From Planctomycetota bacterium (GTDB lineage: Bacteria; Planctomycetota; Phycisphaerae; Phycisphaerales; UBA1924): DNA of 31,866 nucleotides. The stretch lies in the NCBI GenBank assembly GCA_039815345.1, contig JBCBZM010000021.1:1-31866 (forward strand). Reading direction: 5' to 3'. Below are positions 1 to 26,085 of this stretch, in pieces; positions within the stretch are counted from its first letter, which is position 1, and every line of letters begins with the position of its first letter. Made by a program: the position numbers and the translations under genes. The notes below the pieces were generated by a model. It made no database searches, had not been told where the DNA came from, and saw only the letters and a list, made by a program, of their open reading frames with translations.

Positions 1-374
1 AGGAGTCGGCCTCGCCCCGATTTCTTCCAGCGCGGGTCCAGCTTGTGGTACGCGGCAATGGTCTTGGCGTCTTCGTCGAGGCGGAGCATGCGGGCGATGA
101 GCGGGCGGACCTCGGCCTGCTCGGCTCGGGTGAGCGCGCGGTCGAACGTGACGCGGAGTGCTCGGCCTCTGTGGGCGGCTCGGCCTCGTTTGTTGGCATC
201 GGGCGGCTGAGAGATCACCGAGCGGGTTGGGCCCTCGGCGAGTTCGAAGATGCGGTGGAAGGCTTGGGCCTTCACGTCCCAGTGGTTGGGCGCGAGCAGG
301 AAGTAGCCGTAGGAGCAGACGTCGCGCGCGAGCTGGTAGTCGCGCGGGACCTGGATCGTAAGACGCGAACCCAT
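1..374 (-). CDS. hypothetical protein, N-terminal part only (gene runs off the window start)
   Basis: ATG at 374 on the minus strand opens a frame with no stop to position 1 (MGSRLTIQVPRDYQLARDVCSYGYFLLAPNHWDV...). It lies co-directional and 15 bp downstream of the GATase gene. It is absent from the ORF track because it is incomplete. I do not recognise the family. Confidence 0.4.
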   Translation of the reverse strand, partial: MGSRLTIQVPRDYQLARDVCSYGYFLLAPNHWDVKAQAFHRIFELAEGPTRSVISQPPDANKRGRAAHRGRALRVTFDRALTRAEQAEVRPLIARMLRLDEDAKTIAAYHKLDPRWKKSGRGRL

Positions 375-389
375 GGAATCAGGCGGCCA

Positions 390-1118
390 CTAGACAGCCA
401 TCAGGCTGTCGAACGGGAAGGCGAACGTGGCCATGTTGACGCAGACTCGGTCGGCGGCGCGGGCGAACATTTCGTAGGCGTCTTCGGCTTCGGCGGTGAC
501 CTGTCCGGGCGTGTTGCCCGCGGCTTCGATCATCGCGGCGTGCTGGTCGATCCAGGTCGGCAGCGCGTCTTGAACGACCTCGATGTGCGACTGGAACGCG
601 AACGTGCGGAGGCCGACGCGGAAGACGTGGTTCTTGCACGCCTCGCTGGAGCCGAGCAGGGCGGCGCCGGGGGGTAGTTCGGTGACCTCGCGGCTGTGGA
701 AGCAGAGTTGGCGGACGTTCCACGGCACACCCGCGAGCAGGATGTCGGTCTGGCCGGCGTGGTTGAGCTGAACGGGAACGAAGCCGGCTTCGGGCGTTTC
801 GGCCTGGGCCACCTTCCCGCCGAGGGCCTCGGCGATGATCTGGGCGCCGAGGCAGACACCGATCACAGGCAGGTCGCGCTCGTGGGCGGCTTTGGTGAAC
901 GCGCGCAGCGGCTGGAGCCACGGGTGCGACTCGTCGACATTCTGTCCGCCGCCCATGATGACGACGCCGCCGACGTTGTCGAGATCGATCGGGACGCCCT
1001 CGGCGCCGAGTTGGTCGAGGCGACGGATATCGAGCCGGAAGCCGTGATCGCGCAGCGTGGCGCCGATGCGGCCGGAGGTGCGCCAGTGGTCAAACTCGAA
1101 GACGATGATGTGGGCCAT
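390..1118 (-). CDS. class I glutamine amidotransferase-like protein (GATase1 / GMP synthase-like)
   Basis: 242-aa ORF. GVCLGAQ nucleophile-elbow motif with conserved Cys, His/Glu near the C-terminus, about 230 aa length typical of a stand-alone GATase1. Confidence 0.8.
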   Translation of the reverse strand: MAHIIVFEFDHWRTSGRIGATLRDHGFRLDIRRLDQLGAEGVPIDLDNVGGVVIMGGGQNVDESHPWLQPLRAFTKAAHERDLPVIGVCLGAQIIAEALGGKVAQAETPEAGFVPVQLNHAGQTDILLAGVPWNVRQLCFHSREVTELPPGAALLGSSEACKNHVFRVGLRTFAFQSHIEVVQDALPTWIDQHAAMIEAAGNTPGQVTAEAEDAYEMFARAADRVCVNMATFAFPFDSLMAV

Positions 1119-4552: not shown

Positions 4553-6472
4553 CTACTTCGCTGCCGCCTTGGCCCATGAGTCCTTGAGCGTCACCGTGCG
4601 GTTGAAGATGGGGCGGTCGGGCGCGGCGTCCTCGTCGACGCAGAAGTACCCGTGCCGCTCGAACTGGTAGCGGCGGATGCCGTCAGGCCAGTTAGGCTCG
4701 TCATCCGTCCGACTGGCGAGGGCCGGTTCGAGTTTGGCGGCTTCGATCACTTCGAGTGAGTCAGGGTTGAGGTCGTCGAGCGGGTCGCCCGTTTTCTTGC
4801 CGGGCTGGGGCTCGGTGAAGAGGCGGTCGAACAGGCGGACCTCGGCGTTGATGGCGTGCTGAGCGCTGACCCAGTGCAGCGTGCCCTTGACCTTGCGGAC
4901 CTTGCCCTCGGCGTCGGGCGGCGGGTTGTCGCCGCCGCGGGTGTGGGGGTCGTAGGTGCAGCGCAGTTCGATGACTTCGCCCGCGTCGTCTTTGATGACT
5001 TCGTTGCACGTGATCCAGTAGGCGTAGCGGAGGCGGACCTCGCCGCCGGGTTTCAGGCGGAAGAACTTCTTGGGCGCGTCTTCCATGAAGTCTTCGCGCT
5101 CGATGTAGAGCTCGCGGGTGAACGTAACCAACCTTGTGCCGGCGGCTTCGTCCTCGGGGTTGTTGACGGCGTCCATCCATTCCGTGCCGTCGGCGTCGCG
5201 GCGATGTCCTTCGAGGTTGGGGCCTTCGAGCGTTTCGTCCCAGTTGGTGATGGTCACCTTGAGCGGGCGCAGCACGGCCAGACGGCGCGGGGCGACCTTG
5301 TTGAGATGGGCACGCTGGGCGCCTTCGAACAGGCCCAAGTCGTGCACGGCCTTGAACTTGGTCACGCCCGTGTCCAGGCTGAACGCGCGCAATGCCTCGG
5401 GCGTGCAGCCGCGACGGCGGAGACCGGAAACAGTCGGCATGCGCGGGTCGTCCCACCCGGTGACGCGGCCGTCGTCGACGAGCTGCTTGAGCTTGCGCTT
5501 GCTGGTGACGATGTAGGTCGGTTCGAGCCGGCTGAACTCGATCTGCTGGGCGTGGTGGAGACGGTCGGCGGTGTTGGCGGCGTCGCGTTCGCCGCCGGCG
5601 CCCGGGCCGCTGCCGGTTCGCTCGGGCTGACGGCCCCGATTGATCGCGTTGATGAACCAGTCGTAGAGCGGGCGGTGGTCCTCAAACTCGAGCGTGCAGA
5701 TGGAGTGCGTGACGTTCTCGATGGAGTCCTCGAGGCCGTGGGCCCAGTCGTACATCGGGTAGATGTGCCACGCCGAGCCTGTGCGGTGGTGCGGACGGTT
5801 GACGACGCGGTACATGACCGGATCGCGCAAGTTGAAGTTACTGGCGGCGAGATCGATCTTGGCGCGGAGCACGCGGGAGCCGTCGGTGAACTCGCCGGCT
5901 TTCATGCGTGCAAAGAGGTCGAGGCTCTCCTCGGCCGGGCGGTCGCGCCAGGGCGAGGGCGTGTCGGCCTTGCCCGGCCCGCCGCGGCTGGCCTTGATCT
6001 GTTCGGCGGTCTGTTCGTCGACGTACGCCAGGCCCTTGGTGATCAGCTCGCACGCCCAGGCGTACATGCGTTCGAAGTAGTCGCTGGCGAAGGTGACACC
6101 CGCTTCGCTTTCGTGGTTGTCCGGGTCGCAGCCGGTCCAGTCGCCGCCGAGCCAGCGGATGTCGCGGATGATCGAGCGGACGTATTCGGCTTCTTCTTTT
6201 TCGGGGTTGGTGTCGTCGAAGCGGAGGTAGCAGCGACCGCCGTGCTCGTGGGCGAGGCCGAAGCTGAGCACCACGGCCTTGGCGTGGCCGATGTGCATGT
6301 ACCCGTTGGGCTCGGGCGGGAAGCGCGTGGTGACGACCGAGCGATCGCCGGCGGGGCCCCACTTGCCGGCGGCCACGTCGGCGTCGATCGCCTGCTGGAT
6401 GAAGTGCTTGGTGGGCTGCGATTCGGAAGGGTTGGCACGGCTGTCGGGGCGATCTGGACGGTCTGGGCTCAT
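4553..6472 (-). CDS. glnS: glutamine--tRNA ligase (GlnRS)
   Basis: FPPEPNGYMHIGHAKA HIGH-region and LRFDDTNP block align to GlnRS; KMSKS-region equivalent present. Start chosen at Met 6472 (MSPDRPD..); Met 6484 and the longest-ORF start 6568 are alternatives. The 6568 start would run through a terminator-like hairpin. Confidence 0.88.
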   Translation of the reverse strand: MSPDRPDRPDSRANPSESQPTKHFIQQAIDADVAAGKWGPAGDRSVVTTRFPPEPNGYMHIGHAKAVVLSFGLAHEHGGRCYLRFDDTNPEKEEAEYVRSIIRDIRWLGGDWTGCDPDNHESEAGVTFASDYFERMYAWACELITKGLAYVDEQTAEQIKASRGGPGKADTPSPWRDRPAEESLDLFARMKAGEFTDGSRVLRAKIDLAASNFNLRDPVMYRVVNRPHHRTGSAWHIYPMYDWAHGLEDSIENVTHSICTLEFEDHRPLYDWFINAINRGRQPERTGSGPGAGGERDAANTADRLHHAQQIEFSRLEPTYIVTSKRKLKQLVDDGRVTGWDDPRMPTVSGLRRRGCTPEALRAFSLDTGVTKFKAVHDLGLFEGAQRAHLNKVAPRRLAVLRPLKVTITNWDETLEGPNLEGHRRDADGTEWMDAVNNPEDEAAGTRLVTFTRELYIEREDFMEDAPKKFFRLKPGGEVRLRYAYWITCNEVIKDDAGEVIELRCTYDPHTRGGDNPPPDAEGKVRKVKGTLHWVSAQHAINAEVRLFDRLFTEPQPGKKTGDPLDDLNPDSLEVIEAAKLEPALASRTDDEPNWPDGIRRYQFERHGYFCVDEDAAPDRPIFNRTVTLKDSWAKAAAK

Positions 6473-6537
6473 GGGCCTGAGCATATGCCCGACAGGACCG
6501 CGACTTGATCGTGACGTGCCCTTAGCCCGCCTCGTGC

Positions 6538-6574
6538 AACGAAAGACACGGCTCGCCCGTTGGGTCAAGCCGTG
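6538..6574 (-). terminator. putative intrinsic terminator downstream of the DM13 gene
   Basis: On the minus strand, CACGGCT...AGCCGTG (7-bp stem, 6547-6553/6568-6574) is followed by TCTTTCGTT. It sits 31 bp after the DM13 stop (6605) and upstream of glnS. Confidence 0.4.
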
Positions 6575-9158: not shown

Positions 9159-10895
9159 CTACGACGCGGCGGGCGCGCACTCGGCGAGTGCGCGGGCGAC
9201 GCGGGCGGAAACGCCGTCGCGACCGACGAGCGCCAGCGTCTCGCCCAGCGGCGGGCTGACGTTGGTTCCGGTGATAGCGACGCGCAGGGGCGCGGCGAGC
9301 TTGCCCATGCCGACGCCCCTGGACTCAGCGAAGGCCTTCACGGCATCCTCGATCGCCTCGGGCGTGTATGGGTCGATGTGCGCGAGCGTGGGGGCGAAGG
9401 CCTCCAACAGAGCGTGGCCGCTCGGGTCGCCTTTTATCAAACCCTTAGCGACGGCCTTCTCGTCGTACACAATCGCGTCATCGGGCGTCAGCACAAACCG
9501 CAGCGGCTCGATCGCGTCGCAGAGCGTGCGCGTGCGCGGGCGGGTGGCCTTGGCGGCCAGTGCGAAGCGGTCGCCGAGTTGGTCGATCAGCCCGGGCTCG
9601 AACTCGGCGAGCCACACCCGCCAGAGTGTTGCGAACTCCGCGTCGCTCAGCTCGTGCTGGATCGTGTGCGCGTTGAACGAGGAGAGCTTCTCACGGTCGA
9701 ACTTGCTGGCCGACGAGCCGACGCGGTCGAACGAGAACTTCGAGCACAGATAGTCCGCGTCGAAGCGCTCGAGGTCTTTGCCGTCGTCGGCTTTCTCGCC
9801 CGGGTTCCAGCCGAGCAACTCGATGAAGTTGCAAACGACCTCTGGCAGGTATCCCGCGGCCTTGAAGTCGGCGACTTCGATCGCGGGCAGATCGACTTGC
9901 AGATGCTCGGCCAACGCGGCGAGCGGCGCGGTGTCGAGTTGGGCCTTCTTGTCCTTGATCCACTTGGCGAGCGCGGCATCCGTGAGACCCTCGACGGGGG
10001 ACGCCGAGAGGCCCGCCGCTTTGGCGGCCTCGCGTGCGGCCTTGTCTTTGTCGCGCTTGCTCATCTTGGAGCCGTCGGGGTTGAAGATGAGCGGCACGTG
10101 CGCGTAGCTGGGCACGCAAAAGGCCGAGCCGTCGTCGTGCTGCAGCAGAGATTGCAGCGCCACGTGCTTGGGCGTGTTGTTGAGGTGCTCTTGCCCGCGG
10201 ACGACATGCGTGACGCCCATCAGTTCATCATCGACGACGACCGCGAAGTGGTACGTGGGGAAGCCGTCGATCTTGCGGATGACGAAGTCGTCGGTGTGCT
10301 CGTCGGTAAACGTGACCTCACCGAGAATCTCGTCGTGGACCGTGATCGGATCGGCCGGCATCTTGAGCCGCAGCACGTGGGGCTCGGCCTGCATGCGCGC
10401 GAGCGCGGCGTCGCGGTCGTAGTCGGGCGCCTGCGCGTACCGAAATGTCCGCTTCTCGGCCTGCGCGGCTTGGCGCATCGCGTTGAGCTCTTCGGGCGTG
10501 TCGAACGCCGGGTAGGCCAGCCCGCGTTCGACGAGCTGGTCGAAGAAGCGGATGTAGGTGTCGAGTCTCTGGGCCTGATAGAACGGCCCGACGCCCCGGG
10601 CATCGCCGCCGAGTTGCTTGTCACCGCGTTGCGTGTCGCGGAGCAAGAACTCGGGCCCGTCGTCCCAATCGATGCCGAGCCAGGCGAGGTCTTCGAGGAT
10701 GCCCTTGGCGGCGTCCTCGCTGGAGCGGGCTCGGTCTGTGTCTTCGACACGCAGGACAAACCGGCCGCCGCCGCCTTCACGCTGGGCCCGCTGAGCGAAC
10801 ACCCAGCAGAAGAGCGCGGTGCGGGCGCCGCCGATATGGAGGTGGCCCGTGGGAGAGGGTGCGAATCGTGTGATCACGGGGGACGGGTCGGTCAT
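9159..10895 (-). CDS. gltX: glutamate--tRNA ligase (GluRS), long form
   Basis: TRFAPSPTGHLHIGGARTALF HIGH motif and KMSKR (KMSKS) motif; 578 aa with a C-terminal anticodon-binding extension. Confidence 0.9.
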   Translation of the reverse strand: MTDPSPVITRFAPSPTGHLHIGGARTALFCWVFAQRAQREGGGGRFVLRVEDTDRARSSEDAAKGILEDLAWLGIDWDDGPEFLLRDTQRGDKQLGGDARGVGPFYQAQRLDTYIRFFDQLVERGLAYPAFDTPEELNAMRQAAQAEKRTFRYAQAPDYDRDAALARMQAEPHVLRLKMPADPITVHDEILGEVTFTDEHTDDFVIRKIDGFPTYHFAVVVDDELMGVTHVVRGQEHLNNTPKHVALQSLLQHDDGSAFCVPSYAHVPLIFNPDGSKMSKRDKDKAAREAAKAAGLSASPVEGLTDAALAKWIKDKKAQLDTAPLAALAEHLQVDLPAIEVADFKAAGYLPEVVCNFIELLGWNPGEKADDGKDLERFDADYLCSKFSFDRVGSSASKFDREKLSSFNAHTIQHELSDAEFATLWRVWLAEFEPGLIDQLGDRFALAAKATRPRTRTLCDAIEPLRFVLTPDDAIVYDEKAVAKGLIKGDPSGHALLEAFAPTLAHIDPYTPEAIEDAVKAFAESRGVGMGKLAAPLRVAITGTNVSPPLGETLALVGRDGVSARVARALAECAPAAS

Positions 10896-12442: not shown

Positions 12443-12731
12443 GCTCCAATGTTGTAACAAACCATGCCCTAGCGTGAGTTTGCTTAGGTTCATCGAGCCA
12501 GTCAATAGCGTAACAGCAATGAATCCTCAAATCGTGACCGATACGCGACACCCAATACGCGGGGCCGACTCATCCATGGGATTCATTTCCACACGCGGGC
12601 GCCACCTCCCGAGCAGGATTCCCGATAACGCGTATCCCTACTTTGGGGCCTGGCGCCCAATCCTCTACACTCTCCGGTCCCGCCCGCCCGGTTCTCGGCG
12701 TGGCGTCTGAGACCGTGTGGAGACCCCAATC

Positions 12732-14807
12732 ATGACCGTTCGCGACCCCGCCGACATCCGCAACATCCTTCTCACCGGGCAGTCCGGCTCGGGCAAGACG
12801 ATTCTGACCGAGCGGCTGCTGTTCGCCGCGGGCGCCATCACGCGGATGGGATCGATCGAAGAGGGCAACACGGTCAGCGATTGGCGGGACGAAGAGAAGC
12901 ACCACAAACACTCGCTGCACACGACGGTCGTCCACTTCGAGCACGAGCAGCACCTGGTCAACGTCATCGACGCGCCCGGACTGACCGACTTCATCGGGCA
13001 CGCGATCGCCGCCTTCCCGGCCGTCGAGACGGTCTGCGTGGTCATCGACGCAACCAAGGGCATCGAGCCGGTCGCCCGGCGCATGATGCAGGTCGCCAAG
13101 CAACGCAACCTGCCGCGGATGCTGATCGTCAACAAGATCGACGAAGCGGCGGCCGACCTGGAAGCGCTGACCGCCGAACTGCAAGACGAGTTCGGCGCCG
13201 AGTGCCTGGGTGTCAACCTGCCCAGCGCCGATCGGTCGGGCGTGGTCAAGGTCTTCGAGGGCGAGAGCGACGGCGACCCTCTGTTCAGCAGCGCCGACGA
13301 CAGCCACCAGCGCATCATCGAGCAGATCGTGGAGATGCAGGACGACCTGATGACGCAGTACCTCGAGGAAGGCAGCGACGCCAAGCTCGACCCGAGCAAG
13401 GTGCACGACGCGTTCGAGGCGGCGCTGCGCGACGGGCACCTGGTGCCGATCTGCTACTGCTCGGCCGAAACCGGCGCGGGCATCGAACACCTGCTGCACG
13501 TCTTCGCCAGCCTGCTGCCCAATCCGCTGGAGGGCAACCCGCGGCCGTTCATGCGGACCGACACCGAGACGGGCGAGGAGACCGAGATCCACGCCGAGCC
13601 CGACCCGGACAAGCCGGCGCTCGCGCACATTTTCAAGGTCACGGGCGATCGCCACGTGGGCAAGCTGGGCGTCTTCCGCGTGCATCAGGGCACGATCAAG
13701 TCCAAGGGCGAGCTGATCCTCGACGACAACCGCAAGCCGATCCGCATCGGGCACGTCCTCAAGCGGATGGGCAAGGACCAGGTCGAGGTGGACGCGCTCG
13801 GCCCGGGCGACATCGGCGCCCTGGCCAAGATCGACGAGGTCCACTTCGACGCGGTGCTGCACCAGGACCACGACATGGACTCGGTGCACCTCAAGCCGCT
13901 GCCCCTGCCGCGGCCGCTGTTCGGACTGGCGATCGAACTGAAGAACCACGCCGACGAGACCAAGTTCTCGACCGCGATCCACAAGCTGACCGAAGAGGAC
14001 CCGTGCCTGAAGCTCGAGCGCATCGCCGCGACCAAGCAGACCGTGCTGCGCGGCCTGGGCGACCTGCACCTGCGCGTCGCGCTCGAGAAGCTCAAAGAGA
14101 TGTACGGCATTGAGGTGCTGACCAGCCCGCCCAAGGTGGCGTACAAGGAAACCATCGCCGCCAAGGCCGAGGGCCACCATCGGCACAAGAAGCAGACCGG
14201 CGGCGCCGGGCAGTTCGGCGAGGTCTACCTCCGCGTCGAGCCGCTGGGCGCCGACGCCGACGACCCCGAAGGCCTCGAGTTCGTCAACGCGACCGTCGGC
14301 GGCGCCATCCCGCGGCAGTTCATGCCCGCGATCGAAAAAGGCGTCCGGCAGGTCCTCGAGCACGGCGCGGTCGCCGGCTACCCGCTCGGCGGGGTCAAGG
14401 TCGAGGTCTACGACGGCAAGTACCACCCGGTGGATTCCAAGGAAGTCGCCTTCATCACCGCCGGCAAGCGGGCCTTCATCGACGCGGTCAGCAAAGCCCG
14501 CCCGGCGTTGCTCGAACCGTTTGTCACGCTCGAAGTCACGGCGCCGCAGCAGTACATGGGCGATATGACCGGCGACCTGTCGACCCGTCGCGGCCGCGTG
14601 CAGGACACCCGGATCCTCGCGGGCGATCTGTGCACGATCGTCGCGCAGGTGCCGCTGGGCGAGGTCCAAAACTACTCCACCGAACTGAAGAGCATTACCC
14701 ACGGCGCCGGGTCGTACACCATGGATTACTCCCACGACGAGCCCACACCGCCGCATATCCAGCAGGAAGTCATCGCGGCCTTCGAGGGCCACGCCGAGGA
14801 CGACTGA
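12732..14807 (+). CDS. elongation factor G-like GTPase (EF-G2 paralog)
   Basis: 691 aa from ATG 12732 (GGAG 9 nt upstream). G1 = GQSGSGKT (EF-G2-type GHSGxGKT variant), G3 = DAPG, G4 = NKID. The downstream domains II-V are EF-G-like throughout. The canonical RGITI switch I is absent, consistent with EF-G2 rather than housekeeping FusA. Confidence 0.85.
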   Translation: MTVRDPADIRNILLTGQSGSGKTILTERLLFAAGAITRMGSIEEGNTVSDWRDEEKHHKHSLHTTVVHFEHEQHLVNVIDAPGLTDFIGHAIAAFPAVETVCVVIDATKGIEPVARRMMQVAKQRNLPRMLIVNKIDEAAADLEALTAELQDEFGAECLGVNLPSADRSGVVKVFEGESDGDPLFSSADDSHQRIIEQIVEMQDDLMTQYLEEGSDAKLDPSKVHDAFEAALRDGHLVPICYCSAETGAGIEHLLHVFASLLPNPLEGNPRPFMRTDTETGEETEIHAEPDPDKPALAHIFKVTGDRHVGKLGVFRVHQGTIKSKGELILDDNRKPIRIGHVLKRMGKDQVEVDALGPGDIGALAKIDEVHFDAVLHQDHDMDSVHLKPLPLPRPLFGLAIELKNHADETKFSTAIHKLTEEDPCLKLERIAATKQTVLRGLGDLHLRVALEKLKEMYGIEVLTSPPKVAYKETIAAKAEGHHRHKKQTGGAGQFGEVYLRVEPLGADADDPEGLEFVNATVGGAIPRQFMPAIEKGVRQVLEHGAVAGYPLGGVKVEVYDGKYHPVDSKEVAFITAGKRAFIDAVSKARPALLEPFVTLEVTAPQQYMGDMTGDLSTRRGRVQDTRILAGDLCTIVAQVPLGEVQNYSTELKSITHGAGSYTMDYSHDEPTPPHIQQEVIAAFEGHAEDD

Positions 14808-14950: not shown

Positions 14951-15898
14951 GTGTCGGCCTCGAATCAGAAGAACATCTCACTCGTCGTCATCGTCCTGAG
15001 TTTGCTCGTCGCGGGCGGGCTGCTGTTCGCGGCGGTCCGAGAGCTGTCGGCCGAGATCGAACGCTCCGGCGCCGAGGGGTCGGGCGAGGCCGCCGCGTTG
15101 CACGAGGCCGCCCGCACGGGCGACGTCGCCGCGATCCGCCGCGAGCTCGAAGCGGGCGTCAGCGTGGACGCAAAGATGGAGGGTGCGGAAAACTGGATGC
15201 GCGGCATGACGCCGCTCATGTCTTCAGTGTTCTTCAACCAACCCGACGCCGCCGCGCTGCTGCTTGAGAACGGCGCCAACCCCGACCTCGCCGCGTCCGA
15301 CGGGCGCACGCCGATCATCTACGCCGCCGGCTGGGCGGACGCCCCGATGGTCGAGTCGCTGCTCGATCGCGGCGTGACGATCAACGCCCGCTCGCGCGAG
15401 GGCTGGACCGCGCTCATGTTCGCCGCCGGCTCGCGCGGCGACGCCTCCTCGGTCGATCTCCTTCTTGCCAAGGGCGCCGATACCTCGTTCCGCAACAAGT
15501 GGGGTCAGACGGCGTTGCACCTCGCCGCCGTCAGCCGCGACCGCGCCAAGATCGAGCGCCTCCTCGCCGGCGGCGCCGACCCGAGCGTGCGCGACAACGA
15601 CGGGCTCACGCCGCTCTCCGTCCTCGCCGCCAGCGACGCCGACCCGGATCTGCTGCGCCTGGTCATCTCCGGGGCCGGCTCGGCCAACGTGGTCAACATC
15701 GCCGACCACGACGGCGTGACCCCGCTGATGCGCGCCGCCGACCGCGGCGACGCCGACAAGGTCCTCGTCTTGCTCAACGCGGGCGCCGACGCCGCTTCGC
15801 GTGACGCCGCCGGGCGCTCGGCGCTCGATTGGGCCCTGCAACGCGACGACGATCTGGGCGAATCCGTCGGCGAGATCCTCGCCGACGCCGACGCCTGA
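14951..15898 (+). CDS. ankyrin-repeat protein with N-terminal membrane anchor
   Basis: 315 aa. GTG 14951 is the first start in frame after the upstream stop. N-terminal hydrophobic helix ISLVVIVLSLLVAGGLLFAAV, then at least six ankyrin repeats (G.TPL..AA..G......LL..GAD.N blocks). Confidence 0.8.
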   Translation: MSASNQKNISLVVIVLSLLVAGGLLFAAVRELSAEIERSGAEGSGEAAALHEAARTGDVAAIRRELEAGVSVDAKMEGAENWMRGMTPLMSSVFFNQPDAAALLLENGANPDLAASDGRTPIIYAAGWADAPMVESLLDRGVTINARSREGWTALMFAAGSRGDASSVDLLLAKGADTSFRNKWGQTALHLAAVSRDRAKIERLLAGGADPSVRDNDGLTPLSVLAASDADPDLLRLVISGAGSANVVNIADHDGVTPLMRAADRGDADKVLVLLNAGADAASRDAAGRSALDWALQRDDDLGESVGEILADADA

Positions 15899-19182: not shown

Positions 19183-20445
19183 TCAGTCTTCACGCACCGC
19201 GTGGCGCAGCGCGATCAGCGCATACGCCGTGATGAGCGTGGTGTTGTTTTCCATCCACCGGTCGTCCACCGAGGTAAACGAGCCGTCATCGTTCTGCAGC
19301 AGCGCGAGCCGGTCGACCAGGTCGCCACGCCAAGGCCGCTGGCCTTCGGGCCCGCCGTCCATCGCGCCATCGGCGCCGACCTGCACGAACGGTTCGCCCC
19401 ACGCGTACATCGCCCGGCCGAACGTCATGAAGTAGTAGTACAAGCCATCCAGCCCGATGCCGGGGTTTTCTTGCAGCGTGTAGTTCGACTCGATCCACGA
19501 GCGCGCCGCCGCGACGCGCGGGTCGTCGGCGTCCAGTTCGGCGTACGCGAAGCTCTTGAACCCGGCGTACGTCATCGAGCCGTAGGCCCGCAGCCGGCTG
19601 CCGCGGCCGCCGTCGCTGAGCGTTTCTTCGATCACGCCCGCTTTGCTCTCGCCTTCGCCGATGCGTTCGCCGTCGGGCCCGGTCGCGTAGATAAACCCGC
19701 CCTGGGCCGAGCCGTCGGCGTACGGCATGTCGTTCACGGCATCGAGCATCTGCGTGCGCTGTAGAAACACGAGCGCCCGCTGGTAGGCCTCGTGCTGCGC
19801 GGGCACGCCGGAATCGTGCAACGCCTGAAGCATGAGGTTGAGATTGCTGTTGTCCGGCCGGCCGTTGCGGCCGTACCCGATGCCGCCGTAGAACGGATGC
19901 TCGCGTGAGACGCGCTGCGTGGTTTCCGACGCGGGCGTGAGCTCGTCGCCCGCAAACGCGTCCTCGCTGTACTGCAGCCCGATCAGGAACCGCTGGGCGC
20001 CAGGGATGACCGCCTCCACAGCCGGCGCGCGTCGGCCGTCCGGGCCCTGCGCCAGCGCGAGCGCCGACAGACAGATCGCCGTGTTGTAGCTCGGCAGGAT
20101 CTGGTCGTAGATGCCGCCGTCCTCTTGGACGTAACTCAGGATCGCCGTGATCGCCCGGCGCACGCGGGGGTCGCTCGCGTCGATGTCCGGATCGAGCAAC
20201 ATCCCCGTGACGACCAGCCCCGTGATCGCCGGCAGCGTGGGCCCGCGCTCGCTGCGCTCCCACTCGCCCGTGTCAGGGTCTTGCTGAACGCTCAGATACT
20301 CGACCGCGCGGTCCATCATCTGCTCGGCGCGGTCGCGTTGATCGGGGCTGAGACCTTCGAGCCGTGGGCCCTGCGCCGCCGCGACGGCACCGAAAACGAA
20401 CCAAGCCGCGCACGCCGCCGAGATCCAATCGCCGAGCCTTCGCAT
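19183..20445 (-). CDS. secreted prenyltransferase/squalene-oxidase-repeat (alpha-alpha toroid) protein
   Basis: Start at internal Met 20445 (MRRLGDWISAACAAWFVFGAVAAAQGP, signal peptide). Repeated Q..D(G/T)G.(W/Y/F) units (QQDPDTGEWE, QEDGGIY, QNDDGSF) like terpene-cyclase / prenyltransferase beta-subunit repeats. Confidence 0.65.
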   Translation of the reverse strand: MRRLGDWISAACAAWFVFGAVAAAQGPRLEGLSPDQRDRAEQMMDRAVEYLSVQQDPDTGEWERSERGPTLPAITGLVVTGMLLDPDIDASDPRVRRAITAILSYVQEDGGIYDQILPSYNTAICLSALALAQGPDGRRAPAVEAVIPGAQRFLIGLQYSEDAFAGDELTPASETTQRVSREHPFYGGIGYGRNGRPDNSNLNLMLQALHDSGVPAQHEAYQRALVFLQRTQMLDAVNDMPYADGSAQGGFIYATGPDGERIGEGESKAGVIEETLSDGGRGSRLRAYGSMTYAGFKSFAYAELDADDPRVAAARSWIESNYTLQENPGIGLDGLYYYFMTFGRAMYAWGEPFVQVGADGAMDGGPEGQRPWRGDLVDRLALLQNDDGSFTSVDDRWMENNTTLITAYALIALRHAVRED

Positions 20446-20512
20446 CGCGCCACCCTTCTCATCCAACAAACACCCGCCCGTACCACGAGGTACGACCGCT
20501 CCGCATCGAATG

Positions 20513-21364
20513 CTACCGCTCGGAGCCGGCCTCGGACGCGGGCCCGGCCGCTGAGGCCGATGACCCGGCCGACTCGCCCGACATGATGACCCCCGCGGCG
20601 ACCACGCAGGCCGTTTCGATCCGCATGACGTGGACTCCGAACGACACCACCGTGGCGCCGGCGTGACGCGCCCGGTCCAACTCGGCCGGCGTCCAGCCGC
20701 CCTCCGGGCCGACCAGCAGACGGATACGCCCCGCGCCGGAGGGCTCGTAGGGCGTGCCGGACGCGTCGGCGACGACCAGAGTCGGACCATCCTCCGAGCC
20801 GCCGCGCAAGGCCTCGGCCATCCCGCAGCTCGGCCGGATCGCTAGCCGCCACGCCCGCCCGCACTGCTTGGACGCCTCACCCGCGACGCGCTCGAGCCGA
20901 CCGAGCTTGCCGTCACGCGGGTGCACCACCGTGCGGTCGGCGTCCAACGGCGTCCACGACGCAACACCCGCCTGCGCGAGCTGATCGATCATCCGCTCCA
21001 GCCGTTCCCCCTTCGGCGGCGCCGACCAGACGTCCAACTCCGGCCGCGTCGGCTCCACCATGCGCACCGAGTCCACCCGCAGCGTGAGGACCCAGCCCGC
21101 CTTGCCCTGCTTTTCGGTCCGGGCGACGGACGCCGACGCGATCGATCCCAAGCCGTCGAGCACCTCGACCGGCGCGCCCTCGCTCAAGCGCTTGACACGC
21201 ACCGCGTGCTTGGCTTCGTCGCCTTCGATCAAAACTTCCCCGCCGGGAGTCAGCGGCGACAGGTCATGGTCGTCGGCCGGTCGCCCGCTCACGGAGCGAT
21301 CGCGTAAGCCCTCGGGTTCCAGATGGATGCGGTGCGGCGCCAAGGTGTGCTCCAGACGCCGCAA
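20513..21364 (-). CDS. rsmE: 16S rRNA (uracil1498-N3)-methyltransferase
   Basis: C-terminal [14 protein letters not shown] motif and the N-terminal [10 protein letters not shown] region align to RsmE. The track ORF starts with TTG at 21364; an alternative TTG at 21343 would align better with E. coli RsmE, so the start is uncertain by about 7 codons. Confidence 0.78.
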
Positions 21365-21499
21365 GCGAGCGGCGCGCTTCTTGCGTCATGCCGCGGCGGC
21401 CGAGCGGCCTCGGTGCATGCCGCGCAGGAAGCGGCGCCCGACCCCGATATCGGTCTAGAGTGCCGCGCACGAACGGCCGATAGTACCGACAGCGCCGCG

Positions 21500-23125
21500 A
21501 TGACCACCGATTCAACCCCAAACAGCACGACCGAGCCCCTGGACCTCGACGACCAACTCTCCGACCTGCTGGGTCGGATCGATGAAGCCTGCGCCGAGGT
21601 CGAAGAGCGCCTGCGCGAACACGACGAGGACCCGGCCACGCTCGATCTCGAAGCGGCCTTGGCGCTCGGGGTGGCCGTGGACGACGTCGGGCAGGTCGCG
21701 GCGCCCACCAACACCACGGACGCGGCAATAGAGCCCGAGCCGGAGCAAAAGACAGAGCCGGAAGCCGCATCCGAGTCTGACCCAGCACCGGAACCCGAGG
21801 CGGCTGGGCAAGCAGAGGTCGAAGCCGAGGCCGAGGCCGAGGTCGAACGAGACCCCGTAGCTGAGATCGAGACCGAGCCAGAACCAGAACCAGAACCAGA
21901 ATCAGAAGCAGAATCAGAGTCGGAGCCAGAGTCGGAGCCAGAACCCGCATCGGTCGCCGATGCTGAGCCAGAAGCCATCTCTGATCCTGAGCCAGACCCC
22001 GAGCCAGGCCCCGACCCGGAGCCCGACCCAACTCCACAAGCGGCGACCGAGCCCGAGGCGCCCGGCGGCGATGAAGGCGACGAGTTCGATCTCGGCGCTC
22101 TGATTGATGACGCCGTCACCCGATCTGCGGAAGGGGTGGACGAGCAAACCTCCGAGGTCGTGGCCAAGCTCGACGAAGAGCTCGCCGAACGGGCCGACAA
22201 CGCGGCGCTCGATGTTGATCAGCCCGTCGAAACGGAACCCGAGCCCGCCGCCGAACTGCTCGGCGATGCGTCCGAGCTGCCAGCAAACGACACCAACGAC
22301 GACGATCAGACCACCCCGGATTCCAGTGCCGAGCCCAACGCCGAGCCCGAGCCCGTAGGCGAGGCCCCCGACGAGTCGGCCGCCGCCTTCGCCGCCAGCG
22401 ACCCGCCGGCGCCCGAAGTCGAAGAAGCGTGGCCGGATCTCGACGACGAGCCTCAACCCAACGATGAGACTGCGGCCCAGGCCGAAGCCGAGACCCCGCC
22501 AGCGCCGGAGCCCGAACCGACGCCCGCGGCCAACGCCGAGCCCGACACCAAGCCCAAATCCGAATCCAAGTCCGAGCCCAAGCCCGAGTCCAAGCCGGCC
22601 GCGAAACCGCCGAAGCCTGCAAAGGCGCCGAAACCCGCCAAGGCTTCCAAGCCCACAAAGCCGAGCAAGCCGGCCAAAGCCGCAAAGCCGGTCAAGGCCG
22701 CCGGCCTCCAACCCGCCGCCGCGACGCCCGCAAGCGCCAAGGCCGGCGGCCGATCCGTCAAGCAACTCGGCCCATGGATCATCGCCAAAGCCAAAGACTG
22801 GACACCCAAGGTCACGGCGTGGCTCATCGCGACCGGTCGGCGCCTCGCGCCCAAGCTCGCGCCGGCCGCGCTCACCACCAGCCGCGCCATCAGCAAGCCG
22901 CTGGAGCGCAAGCCCAAGGCCGTGCGCGACATGATCGGCTGGGTCGCGCTCGGCTCACTGTTCTGGGGCGGGTGCGTCTGGGTCGTGGTGCTCTTCTTCC
23001 GCGAGCCCGCGATCCCGCAGGCCGCCACACCGCCGGCCGCCCTGATCCCACCCGACGCCGGGCCGGGCCCAACGCCCGGAACGACGCCGATGCCAAGCGC
23101 AAGCGGAGTCTCGCTCGGGGAGTAA
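21500..23125 (+). CDS. low-complexity acidic (E/P/A/D-rich) protein with a lysine-rich KP-repeat segment and C-terminal transmembrane anchor
   Basis: 541 aa from ATG 21500; the upstream part of the 21323 track ORF overlaps rsmE. pI-extreme: about 350 aa with many EPEPEP/SE repeats, then [51 protein letters not shown] (histone-H1/AlgP-like). The hydrophobic helix [23 protein letters not shown] lies near the C-terminus. Confidence 0.6.
21875..21946 (+). repeat. hexanucleotide tandem repeats (GAGCCA/GAACCA/GAATCA)n encoding (EP/ES)n
   Basis: Direct reading: gagccagaaccagaaccagaaccagaatcagaagcagaatcagagtcggagccagagtcggagccagaa. Confidence 0.85.
22549..22700 (+). repeat. degenerate 9/12-nt tandem repeats encoding the KP(x)K lysine/proline array
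   Basis: Repeated aagcc(c/g)..aag units across about 150 bp. Confidence 0.7.
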
Positions 23126-23133
23126 GGCGGGTC

Positions 23134-24534
23134 TTAGAACGCCGCCTGTTTGGGCGCCCGCGGGAACGGGATCACGTCGCGGATGTTCGCCATCCCCGTC
23201 GTGAACTGCACCAGCCGCTCAAAGCCCAAGCCGAAGCCCGCGTGCGGCACCGTGCCGTACTTCCGCAGATCCCGGTACCAGTCATAATCGGCCTTGGGCA
23301 GGTTCATCTCGTCGAGGCGTGCGTCGAGCACGTCGAGCCGTTCCTCGCGCTGGGAGCCGCCGATGATCTCGCCGATGCCCGGCGCCAGCACGTCCATCGC
23401 CGCCACGGTCTTGCCGTCGTCGTTCATGCGCATGTAGAACGCCTTGATGTCCTTCGGATAGTCCATCAGCACCAGCGGCTGCTTGAAGTGCTCCTCCGTC
23501 AGGTACCGCTCGTGCTCTGATTGCAGGTCGGTCCCCCACTCCACCGGGAACTCGAACGACTTCTTGGCTCCCTTGAGAATGTCGATCGCTTCAGTGTACG
23601 ACAGCCGGCGGAAGGGCGTGTCGACCACGTGCCGCAGCCGTTCGATCAGGCCCTTCTCGATCCGAAGATCAAAGAACGCCATATCGTCGGCCCGCTTGGT
23701 CAGCACCTCGTCGAGCACCTCTTTCAGCATCGCCTCGGCAAGGTCCGCGTTGTCGTTCAGGTCGGCAAACGCGACCTCCGGCTCGATCATCCAGAACTCG
23801 CTGAGATGCCGGGTCGTGTTCGAGTTCTCGGCACGAAACGTCGGCCCGAACGTGTACACCCGGCTGAGCGCACAGCAATAGGTCTCCACGTTCAACTGCC
23901 CCGACACGGTCAGGTGGGCCTCGCGACCAAAGAAGTCCTCGCCGAAGTCCACGCCGCCGCCTTCCGCTCGCGGCGGGTTGAGCGCATCCAGCGTCGAGAC
24001 GCGAAACATCTCACCCGCGCCCTCGCAGTCGCTGGCCGTGATGATCGGCGTGTGGATGTAGTAAAACCCGCGCCGATCAAAGAAGTTGTGGATCGCCAGG
24101 CTCAGCGCGTGCCGCACGCGCGCAACGGCGCCGAACGTGTTCGTCCGCGCCCGCAGGTGTGCCACCTCGCGCAGGTACTCGAAGCTGTGGCGTTTGTTGC
24201 TCACCGGGTAGGTGTCGGGCTCCTCGACCCAGCCGACGACGCGCACGGCGTCGGCCGCGATCTCGACCGACTGCCCCTTGCCTTTGCTTTCCACGAGCGT
24301 GCCGTCCACCTCGATCGCGCAGCCCGTGGTGAGCTTGGCGACCTCGTCGGCGTAGTTGTTCAGACCGTTCCGCGCCACGACCTGGATCGGGTCGTGGCAG
24401 GTGCCGTCGTGCAACGCGATGAACGAAAGCCCGCCGTCGGCCTTGCTGTCGCGCCGGGTGCGGACCCAGCCCTTGACCGTCACCGCCGTGCCGGGCGATG
24501 CCGCCGCCGCCTCGGAAATCTTCAACCACGCCAT
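23134..24534 (-). CDS. asnS: asparagine--tRNA ligase (AsnRS)
   Basis: Class II aaRS motifs with the AsnRS-specific [21 protein letters not shown] block, an N-terminal OB-fold and the C-terminal GFGLGFERL motif 3. Start at Met 24534 (MAWLKI..) with GGAAAGGA about 10 nt upstream. Confidence 0.9.
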
Positions 24535-24666
24535 GCCCTTGGTCCTTTCCGGCGCCGCCCGCCGGGATCGTTCCGGACGGAGGCGCAAGCCGCCGCGATG
24601 CTAGGTCGCCCCGCCCCGAGCCAGACCGCCCCGGTACCATCACGCCCGTTCTTTCAGGAGCCTTGC

Positions 24667-26085
24667 GTGGATCATTTCGCATACCGCGACGGCGAACTCT
24701 GGGCCGACGGCCTCCGAGCCGCCGAACTCGCCGACCGCTTCGGCACGCCGCTCTACGTCTACACCGCCGCCACCATCGCCGAGCACATCAGCCGGTTCCG
24801 CCAGGCCTTCGCGCCGTTGAACCCCGGCCTGCGCTACGCCGTCAAGGCCAGCGGCAACCTCCAACTCATCCGTCTCATGGCCGAGCTCGGCATGGGCGCC
24901 GACGCCGTGAGTCAGGGCGAGGTCGAACGCGCCTGGCTCGCGGGCGTCCCCATGGATCAGATCGTCATGGCCGGCGTCGCCAAAACCGACGACGAGATCG
25001 CCTCAGCCCTTTCAGGCGCCCACAGCCCGCTTGCGGGCTCCGACCTCCGCGGCCCCGCCGGCGCCGGCCCCGAACACCGAGGACCGATCGGCCGATTCAA
25101 TGTCGAGTCCGAAGGCGAACTCCTCCGCATCGACCGCGTCGCGCGCTCACTCGGATCGACGCCACAACACGCCGCGCACTGCTCACTCCGCGTCAACCCC
25201 GACGTAGACGCCCACGCCCACGCCTACACCACCACCGGCACCCACGCCAACAAGTTCGGCGTCCCCATCGAGCACGCGGCCGACGCCTTCGACCACGCCC
25301 GTGCGCTCGACGCCGTCACGCTCGACGGCCTGCACCTGCACCTCGGCTCGCCCATCCTTTCCACAGAACCCTTCAAGCTCGCAATCACCAAAGCTCTCGA
25401 CCTGATCGATGAGTTGGCCCGCCGTGGCCACGCGATCCGCTCGCTCAACATCGGCGGCGGGTTCGCCGCCGACTACCACACAGGCCAGGCCCCCTGGGCC
25501 CGCCAGTACGCCGACACCATCGTGCCCATGCTCGAACCCCGCGTCCGCGAAGGGCTGGAAATCCTGCTCGAGCCCGGCCGTACGATCATGGCCTCCGCCG
25601 GTGTTCTGCTCGTGCGCGTGGTCGATGTGAAACGCACCATCAGCAAACGCTTCATCGTCTGCGACGCCGGGATGAACGCGCTCGTCCGCCCTTCGCTCTA
25701 CGGCGCCGAGCACTTCGTCTGGCCCACACGCCCGGGCGATGCGCTCACACCCCTCGAGCGCGCGGTCTCGCCCAAGCTCGCCAACGAAGACATCGCCGAG
25801 ATCGAACCCGCCGACGTGGTCGGGCCGCTCTGCGAATCCAGCGACTTCCTCGCCCGCGACCGCCGGCTGCCGCCCGTGCAACCGGGCGAGGTGCTGGCTG
25901 TCTTCACCGCCGGCGCCTACGGCATGTCGATGGCGACGACCTACAACGACCGCCCCAAACCCGCAGAAGCACTGGTCCAAGGCGACGAAGCCGAACTCAT
26001 CCGCCGCCGACAAACGCTCGCCGACCTGCTCGCGCCCGAGCTCTCGTTGCGGTCGCCACAGCCGAACGATCCGCGTCCATCCTGA
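24667..26085 (+). CDS. lysA: diaminopimelate decarboxylase
   Basis: Only the last 472 codons of the 23521..26085 track ORF are real. GTG 24667 is preceded by AGGAG 7 nt upstream. N-terminal FAYRDGELWADGL, YAVKAS (PLP Lys), GGGF and the C-terminal CESSD / AGAYG blocks are all typical of LysA. Confidence 0.9.
   Translation: MDHFAYRDGELWADGLRAAELADRFGTPLYVYTAATIAEHISRFRQAFAPLNPGLRYAVKASGNLQLIRLMAELGMGADAVSQGEVERAWLAGVPMDQIVMAGVAKTDDEIASALSGAHSPLAGSDLRGPAGAGPEHRGPIGRFNVESEGELLRIDRVARSLGSTPQHAAHCSLRVNPDVDAHAHAYTTTGTHANKFGVPIEHAADAFDHARALDAVTLDGLHLHLGSPILSTEPFKLAITKALDLIDELARRGHAIRSLNIGGGFAADYHTGQAPWARQYADTIVPMLEPRVREGLEILLEPGRTIMASAGVLLVRVVDVKRTISKRFIVCDAGMNALVRPSLYGAEHFVWPTRPGDALTPLERAVSPKLANEDIAEIEPADVVGPLCESSDFLARDRRLPPVQPGEVLAVFTAGAYGMSMATTYNDRPKPAEALVQGDEAELIRRRQTLADLLAPELSLRSPQPNDPRPS

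Follow-up and report, generated by a model that had tools for sequence, protein, structure and literature searches.

Locus and Reading Frame

The gene analyzed here is located in a stretch of 31,866 nucleotides from a Planctomycetota bacterium (Phycisphaerae; Phycisphaerales; UBA1924; GenBank assembly GCA_039815345.1, contig JBCBZM010000021.1, positions 1 to 31,866), referred to below as the window. The gene is genuine and encodes a membrane-anchored, mostly disordered and very acidic protein. Its open reading frame (ORF) starts with the ATG at 21500, ends with the stop codon at 23123-23125 and encodes 541 amino acids (aa). The longest ORF begins at 21323 and would add 59 residues to the product; this extension overlaps the divergent rsmE gene and has no counterpart in the full-length ortholog P0002 (547 aa, 45-48% identical in alignments), whose start is MTTDPTPNAVTEP. 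The ATG at 21500, which had been assumed in the initial annotation of the locus, is therefore retained as the start. The gene, the parts of its product and the two flanking genes are listed in Table 1.

Table 1. Positions of the gene encoding the acidic protein, of the parts of its product and of the flanking genes in the window
Feature	Position	Residues	Strand	Remarks
rsmE, 16S rRNA methyltransferase	20513..21364		-	Pfam Methyltrans_RNA and PUA_4; divergent from the target gene, 135-bp spacer
Target gene, acidic protein with predicted tail anchor	21500..23125		+	Complete, 541 codons plus stop; from the ORF list and the sequence
N module	21536..21625	13-42	+	Conserved amphipathic acidic helix; hidden Markov model (HMM) consensus PDTPDLDARVDALLEEIDEACE
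Acidic disordered tract 1	21710..22069	71-190	+	43 D/E vs 2 K/R, 26 P; identity to P0002 29%, gapped
Central helical island	22085..22219	196-240	+	Short helix 196-207 and the M module
Acidic disordered tract 2	22220..22540	241-347	+	32 D/E vs 0 K/R; identity to P0002 31-34%
K/P/A array	22541..22699	348-400	+	Hypervariable, basic, low-complexity, lineage-specific
Pre-anchor basic amphipathic helix	22769..22903	424-468	+	Net positive; ends in the conserved S-K-P-L motif
Transmembrane anchor	22916..23002	473-501	+	From hydropathy and conservation
Pro-rich tail after the transmembrane helix	23003..23122	502-541	+	Predicted periplasmic; proximal pattern xPxxPxPxxxPxxL
asnS	23134-24588		-	Convergent with the target gene, 8 bp between the stop codons

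The protein is dominated by alanine (94 residues), proline (84), glutamate (77) and aspartate (45). The GC content across the window is 63-72%, and the GC content at third codon positions (GC3) of the target gene is 0.77 versus 0.81-0.92 in the neighbouring genes, the lower value being due to the GAA and CCA codons of the repeats. We regard as practically negligible the possibility that the ORF is spurious or that a collapsed or chimeric assembly gave rise to its repeats. In favor of it are the low complexity of the sequence in a genome with 68% GC, where long spurious ORFs are common, the low GC3 and one related contig, L015, which is either chimeric or rearranged in the part before the M module. 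Against it, many independent assemblies retain the same frame, start, modules and synteny, and more than 100 homologs share the architecture. The C-terminal 60% of the gene is reproduced by L015, an independent metagenome assembly that aligns to positions 22158-23235 at 92% identity overall, and the repeat codons account for the GC3 value.

Upstream of the M module, L015 (positions 1-948; coverage 0.7x) bears no resemblance to the window, and the protein called on this contig has an unrelated 83-residue N-terminus. This part of L015 is probably a chimeric assembly, or it may be a real rearrangement. Several long ORFs overlap the target gene in antisense or in other frames, namely 21289-22200 (-, SGSGSG...), 21914-22765 (-, GLGLGL...) and 22464-22934 (+, RPRP...). 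They have no homolog support and are regarded as artefacts, since they are generated by the repeat composition.

Family of Related Proteins

An exact record look-up of the target protein gave no match, and a word-indexed search with it found four relatives. P0001 is an 86% identical fragment carried by contig L015, P0002 is the above ortholog, and P0003 and P0004 are shorter proteins with the same layout, the latter from a Planctomycetota metagenome-assembled genome. When the C-terminal alignment was used as the query, the word-indexed homolog search found no match, whereas an exhaustive profile search succeeded. In the latter, the last ~115 alignment positions were compared with 1.84 billion cluster representatives (clusters at 50% identity), and 458 of these matched at E<=1e-3 and 122 at E<=1e-10. 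Because the target sequence had been included in the seed profile, its match to this profile arose by construction, and independent support is provided by the alignment with P0002-P0004. A search for homologs retaining the C-terminal helix, as suggested in the initial annotation, thus yielded 458 representatives with the anchor module.

The best 150 of the 458 matches are 56-640 residues long, and in all of them the matching part is located at or near the C-terminus. Full-length members of the family have approximately 270-640 residues, the shorter entries being fragments. All taxonomically labelled members are recorded as 'Phycisphaerales bacterium', 'Phycisphaeraceae bacterium' or 'Planctomycetota bacterium'. 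Protein names were available for 7 of the 29 listed relatives, and each of them is 'hypothetical protein'.

Pfam and NCBIfam searches with the target protein and with its four separate modules returned only compositional noise (Trypan_PARP, SdrC and a TonB spacer), and the Pfam scan of 99 aligned members gave zero credible domains. The profile search in the PDB gave low-complexity matches only (E>=0.003), and the Foldseek comparison of the AlphaFold2 (AF2) model of the target protein with the PDB returned nothing. Nothing relevant was found in the literature on tail-anchored or acidic disordered proteins in Phycisphaerae. According to these sequence comparisons, the target protein is a member of a new, unnamed family, so far assigned to Phycisphaerales/Planctomycetota by its labelled members; the initial impression that it belongs to no standard annotated family holds for it and for the 99 relatives.

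Conserved Modules and Predicted Structure

The alignment used for the assessment of conservation, for AF2 modeling and for charge counts contained 99 family sequences, and conservation in it is confined to three modules, N, M and C. The feature list of the initial annotation had overlooked the conserved and likely function-bearing parts of the protein: its N-terminal and middle helices and its anchor module.

In the N module, the conserved block comprises residues 13-35, with L16, L23 and L24 kept in 94-96% of members and V/I20, D/E21, E/D26 and I/V/M27 also conserved. Its simplified consensus is DLDxxVDALLxEID with the core [VI]DxLLxE[IV]. The motif [DE]-L-x-x-x-[VI]-[DE]-x-L-L-x-[ED]-[IVM] is present in the target protein within residues 14-32 (19.8 bits with the family HMM) and in 108 of the 151 retrieved family proteins; at least two N-like motifs occur in 50 of the 99 members versus none in shuffled sequences.

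The M module (residues 221-240) has the consensus DIDSLDDELAALADELLEGEFE, simplified as LDDELAxLAxxLL, and its most conserved positions are L224 (87%), D225 (91%), L228 (87%) and A229 (85%). The motif L-D-[DAE]-[EA]-L-A is present in the target protein within residues 222-235, which score 7.8 bits with the family HMM. In addition, a small conserved island (residues 293-312) is located within acidic tract 2.

As for the C module (residues 455-515), it includes the end of the pre-anchor helix, where P455 (89%), S465 (72%), P467 (98%) and L468 (84%) are conserved, the transmembrane (TM) anchor with R476 (95%), G480 (99%), F488 (94%) and W494 (93%), and the beginning of the tail with P503 (75%), P506 (92%) and P512 (65%). 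The anchor consensus is SKPL..KP..VRD.IGW.A.WT.FLA.C.W.Y.LFFR.P..P, and the target protein carries within residues 465-506 S465, P467, L468, R476, G480, W481, A483, F488, W494, R501, P503 and P506. In this alignment, the near-invariant positions are L16, L23, L24, D225, P467, R476, G480, F488 and W494.

Comparison with P0002 gives a similar picture. Identity reaches 80% in the N module, 80% in the island 293-312 and 86% in the TM helix; it is 69% in the M module, 62-69% over the central helical island and 62% in the pre-anchor helix. In the variable parts it falls to 29-34% in the acidic tracts, 26% in the KP tract (the K/P/A array of Table 1) and 12% in residues 401-440.

The AF2 model built from the 99-sequence alignment contains confident helices only at residues 16-42, 48-55, 199-207, 215-236, 424-468 and 473-500. 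The predicted local distance difference test score (pLDDT) is above 90 for helix 16-42, about 86 for helices 199-207 and 215-236, and 84-93 for helix 424-468. Outside the six helices it is below ~55, including the KP array (~50) and the acidic tracts (<50).

The target protein has only two cysteines, C31 (21590-21592) and C492 (22973-22975). Both lie in conserved alignment columns, with 35% Cys in the N helix and 59% Cys in the TM helix.

Acidic Linkers and Coding Repeats

Residues 71-347 form an acidic stretch with 93 D/E versus 5 K/R, and every 30-residue window in it has a net charge of -5 to -14. An acidic tract of about 350 residues rich in E, P, A and D had been described initially; the composition is correct, while the length is 277 residues and the tract is broken by the helical islands 196-207, 215-240 and 293-312, which are conserved and free of repeats. 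Its description as highly acidic and disordered agrees with the charge-pattern analysis and with the low pLDDT outside the six helices.

The tract had also been described as encoded by hexanucleotide tandem repeats. According to the analysis in Tandem Repeats Finder (TRF), such arrays are real (21815-21846, 21878-21918, 22329-22355 and 22548-22596, with 4.5-8.2 copies, plus 12- and 18-nt periods), but they are short and patchy and cover only part of the tract. In tract 1, the tandem arrays of 6, 12 and 18 nt encode runs of EA, EP, ES and DP dipeptides.

The linkers vary strongly in length across the family, from 56 to 417 aa between the N and M modules and from 107 to 283 aa between the M module and the TM helix. 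The net charge of the cytoplasmic part is negative in every member, from -6 to -180, and equals -80 in the target protein. This is the one linker property that is always retained, and the share of D/E among family members is 10-31%, which would suit a function of the acidic tracts themselves: a membrane-anchored polyanionic brush with no specific protein partner, which would buffer or store divalent cations or keep macromolecules off the membrane surface. Such a brush would leave the conserved N and M helices and the sequence-specific conservation of the TM helix unexplained, the charge differs 30-fold among members, and we regard the explanation as quite unlikely.

Membrane Anchor and Topology

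The protein has a single hydrophobic segment, residues 478-501 (22931-23002), with a Kyte-Doolittle 19-residue maximum of 2.17 at residues 482-500. A membrane anchor formed by one hydrophobic helix near the C-terminus, as proposed initially, is thus supported by hydropathy and by conservation in the family. Outside the TM helix the maximum is 0.65, in the N-terminal 60 residues, and the protein is therefore considered to have no signal peptide. In 98% of members, the 15-residue flank just before the TM helix has a net positive charge, and the first 15 residues downstream have a mean net charge of -0.5 across the family. The positive upstream flank and the lack of a signal peptide place, by the positive-inside rule, the N-terminal 477 residues in the cytoplasm and the 40-residue Pro-rich stub in the periplasm. 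A C-tail-anchored, N-in topology is therefore predicted.

In the reverse topology, the acidic N-terminal domain would be exported and, as the EP/KP rod does in TonB or domain II in TolA, span the periplasm, and the tail would be cytoplasmic. An EP-type acidic run followed by a KP-type basic run recalls the spacer of TonB, likewise an inner-membrane protein with a single membrane pass, and in both proteins the Pro-rich tracts are probably extended spacers. In the target protein the EP runs lie at residues ~126-175 and the KP runs at 348-400, and a non-significant NCBIfam match to the TonB spacer (E=2.8) is the only database echo of the KP tract. Long Lys-rich tails downstream of the TM helix, found in 16 of the 99 members, would also suit a cytoplasmic tail. 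However, the anchor of TonB is N-terminal, its spacer is periplasmic and its C-terminus is formed by a TonB_C domain, whereas the anchor of the target protein is C-terminal (478-501 of 541), its tracts are about 200 residues apart and predicted to be cytoplasmic, and no TonB_C or TolA domain was found in it with Pfam and NCBIfam. The protein has neither a signal peptide nor an N-terminal hydrophobic segment, and the upstream flank of the TM helix is positive in 98% of members. To our knowledge, the export of a tail of ~480 residues with no signal peptide is without precedent. The reverse topology is accordingly held to be very improbable, and the N-in topology is used below.

Long tails of 46-126 residues, rich in Lys, His and Gly, follow the TM helix in 33 of the 99 members (alignment A3), including P0013, P0020, P0031, P0035, P0038, P0046 and P0061. 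All 33 proteins with a C-terminal His ending (...GGH, ...GEH or ...GHH) belong to the long-tail group; at least one further long-tail member, P0046, ends with ...GHGEE. The long tail could be a periplasmic metal-binding or sorting feature, and it is absent from the target protein.

KP Array

The basic K/P array described initially is present, and the repeat quoted in that description is located at 22613-22690. The array contains 16 K/R and 14 P in 53 residues, and TRF detects periods of 6, 12 and 18 nt. P0002, P0003 and P0004 have no KP array; in P0002 this place is occupied by PQ/AQ repeats. The target protein is the only one of the 99 members with at least 8 Lys per 30-residue window upstream of the TM helix, while the Lys-dense tracts of 16 other members are in the tail downstream of it, on the opposite side of the membrane. 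The basic zone beside the membrane covers about 60 residues in the family and about 130 in the lineage of the target protein with its KP array. Farther from the membrane, 60-120 residues upstream of the TM helix, most members carry net negative charge and only 6-24% are positive; in the target protein the charge of this zone is +0.20 to +0.27 per residue.

In the alignment with contig L015, the flanks are ~98-99% identical, and the interval 22550-22680 is scrambled, with a net in-frame length difference of 15 nt. The expectation that the coding repeats are prone to length variation is thereby confirmed, the KP array being the one scrambled segment relative to a ~98%-identical strain. Since the array is unique upstream of the TM helix among the 99 members, is absent from P0002 and is scrambled relative to L015, it is considered young, unstable and lineage-specific. 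In terms of its sequence evolution, the array is a fast-evolving low-complexity expansion and not the functional core of the protein. Most probably, it rests on the head groups of anionic lipids or forms a pair with the acidic tract of the same protein.

The K/P/A repeats of AlgP and of the C-terminal domains of histone H1 bind polyanions, and residues 348-400 resemble these proteins in composition and short K-P-A periodicity. The array might accordingly be an AlgP/H1-like tail that binds polyanions and in this way links the nucleoid (or polyphosphate or RNA) to the membrane, in which case the adjoining acidic tract would serve as an autoinhibitory or competing polyanion; the predicted topology does place the array on the cytoplasmic side. 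Unlike the tails of AlgP and H1, the tract is short (~50 residues), is joined to a membrane anchor and a large polyanion, and adjoins a competing tract with a net charge near -90. No H1-like, HC2 or Linker_histone match was found with the whole protein (E<=1) or with residues 340-420 (E<=10). On this side of the membrane the array is missing from the 98 other aligned members, where the equivalent zone is mostly net negative, and between near-identical strains it is the least conserved, indel-bearing segment. Such instability and lineage restriction argue against a conserved H1/AlgP-like function. The nucleoid- or polyanion-binding role suggested in the initial annotation is thus not supported by the present data, and we consider it unlikely.

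Comparison with Known Systems

The HMMs of the N and M modules were compared with hand-entered sequences of paxillin, CheZ, FliM, PopZ and YqjD, and the scores were assessed against 2000 shuffles. The N-module HMM scored 7.2 bits on the paxillin LD motifs (LDxLLxxL; 0 of 2000 shuffles as good), 3.5 bits on the CheY-binding peptide of CheZ (residues 203-210; 29 of 2000) and 0.8 bits on that of FliM (residues 10-15; 18 of 2000). Like LD motifs and EIDAL/CheZ peptides, the N core would be an acidic amphipathic docking helix, and the likeness is that of a short motif only.

The N and M helices might be specific EIDAL/CheZ-like peptides that bind a CheY-type receiver or an FlhG/MinD-type ATPase, so that the protein would act at the membrane as a sink or a recruiter for motility or polarity signalling. 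The HMM does align at the right places of the hand-entered CheZ and FliM sequences, with ~1% of shuffles as good. Nevertheless, both scores are low, and the higher score of the same HMM on the eukaryotic paxillin motifs points to a generic class of acidic amphipathic helices. No chemotaxis or flagellar gene is present in the window or in the related loci. This specific role is regarded as highly improbable. A CheY- or FlhG-binding EIDAL-like motif was rejected as a candidate, the HMM-versus-shuffle comparison with hand-entered sequences being too weak to support it.

Several scaffold and anchor proteins share parts of the architecture. PopZ, the polar organising protein of Alphaproteobacteria, likewise has a short conserved N-terminal amphipathic helix, which in both proteins would be a client-binding motif, followed by an acidic disordered linker of variable length rich in Pro, Glu and Asp. 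Unlike the target protein with its C-terminal TM anchor, PopZ is a soluble protein that assembles with itself by means of a helical domain at the C-terminus, DUF2497; no Pfam match to this domain was found in the target protein or the 99 members, and the N and M HMMs match nothing in the hand-entered PopZ sequence. HubP/FimV proteins are also membrane-anchored, with a very acidic repetitive cytoplasmic region that could recruit partners, but they differ in their periplasmic LysM domain, N-proximal TM helix and C-terminal FimV motif; neither the LysM domain nor the FimV motif was matched in the target protein with Pfam and NCBIfam. ElaB, YqjD and YgaM (DUF883), which are inner-membrane proteins, have the N-in, C-tail-anchored topology predicted here and likewise a helical cytoplasmic N-terminus; in contrast to the target protein, they have only ~100 residues and no acidic disordered region. 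No Pfam match to DUF883 was found in the target protein or the 99 members, and the HMMs showed no similarity to the hand-entered YqjD sequence.

Judged from its domain content, the target protein lacks the defining features of the PopZ, HubP/FimV, ElaB/YqjD and TonB families. By analogy, its mode of action would be closest to that of disordered scaffolds tethered to the membrane or the pole (PopZ, HubP/FimV, ZipA-type tethers and ElaB/YqjD). A bitopic disordered tether is an already known kind of protein; the family itself is new.

Genomic Context

The rsmE gene is located directly upstream of the family gene in 10 of 12 distinct related loci. The recurring gene order is aminotransferase, M32 carboxypeptidase, SQHop-cyclase-like protein and rsmE, then the family gene, then (MA_2 peptidase) asnS, (lysA), SPFH, radical SAM and alpha/beta hydrolase. 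Relatives with no more than 38-46% identity in the C module also show this order. Since the whole block of ~15 kb is syntenic, it indicates orthology and core-genome status and provides no specific functional link. At the target locus, the promoter scan found no promoter-like site, the terminator scan gave two matches, which is no more than expected by chance, and the Rfam and tRNA scans found nothing.

The ORF 19183-20790 (-) overlaps the 3' end of rsmE and contains a hydrophobic signal-like segment, MRRLGDWISAACAAWFVFGAVAAAQG; no Pfam match was found for it at 1e-5, and its orthologs show faint matches to SQHop_cyclase_C (terpene-cyclase/prenyltransferase fold). It follows rsmE in most related loci, and it and the M32 carboxypeptidase gene probably form an operon. 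Several relatives have a Peptidase_MA_2 gene between the family gene and asnS; it converges on the family gene and sometimes overlaps its 3' end by a few bases (L009 9715-10875, L010 8890-10050, L011 2135-4351, L013 9695-10864 and L014 5132-6301); it is absent from the window. The 854-aa ORF at 23521-26085 (+) is lysA, with Orn/DAP decarboxylase domains from ~24700 and a long, spurious N-terminal extension antisense to asnS.

The window (31 kb) carries housekeeping genes and is rich in translation genes. Besides the AsnRS gene, it contains two genes of class-I Glu/Gln-type tRNA synthetases, 4553-6568 (-) and 9159-10895 (-), and, in addition to rsmE, a gene of EF-G (12717-14807). A bacterial protein with ankyrin repeats is encoded by the ORF 14951-15898 (+); its Pfam Ank matches reach E-values of 6e-37.

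Proposed Function and Significance

In our proposal, which seems somewhat likelier to be right than wrong, the target protein is a tail-anchored tether with N-in topology, and its docking helices are held out on a polyanionic leash. The protein would act as a membrane-tethered scaffold. Its TM helix is sequence-conserved and aromatic-rich and is followed by the Pro-rich stub, which suggests specific docking rather than a passive anchor; the helix and stub may dock the protein into or beside a membrane complex. The polyanionic, proline-stiffened linkers would be repelled by the anionic membrane and thus form an extended leash that sets the reach of the protein. The conserved acidic amphipathic helices of the N and M modules may serve as docking motifs capturing one or more cytoplasmic partners, and multivalency may be common, about half of the family having at least two N-type motifs. 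The KP array would lengthen the membrane-adjacent basic zone in the lineage of the target protein only.

Several observations weigh against this proposal. The scaffold function is deduced only from the architecture of the protein. The target protein itself has one strong copy of the N-type motif and no more, and the resemblance of the N core to acidic amphipathic docking helices is a weak likeness of motif class, not homology. The long Lys/His-rich tails downstream of the TM helix in a third of the family are awkward for the positive-inside rule. Finally, the synteny with rsmE may reflect general conservation of gene order in the clade and gives no clue to the function.

In a broader reading, the family might serve Phycisphaerales as a lineage-specific organising hub, tethered to the membrane and corresponding in function to PopZ, HubP or ZipA; its docking helices would recruit the cell-division or polarity machinery while the leash sets the reach. 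The core-genome context and the strongly conserved TM helix are compatible with this idea, which is highly speculative and more doubtful than the brush considered above. Planctomycetes have no FtsZ, and their mode of division is an open question (PMC5147048, PMC6952346).

If the target protein were merely a passive spacer, it would be of modest interest. It may also serve as a caution for annotation by low-complexity resemblance: the eye-catching KP array is the least conserved part of the protein, so an annotation drawn from its likeness to H1 or AlgP would mislead. The family is sizeable, with 458 clusters at 50% identity, and no database names it. Its design, two conserved helices with a putative docking role and a sequence-conserved tail anchor joined by polyanionic linkers whose length varies several-fold, is unusual. 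It thus offers a concrete handle for the study of Phycisphaerales, whose membrane organisation and FtsZ-less division are poorly understood.

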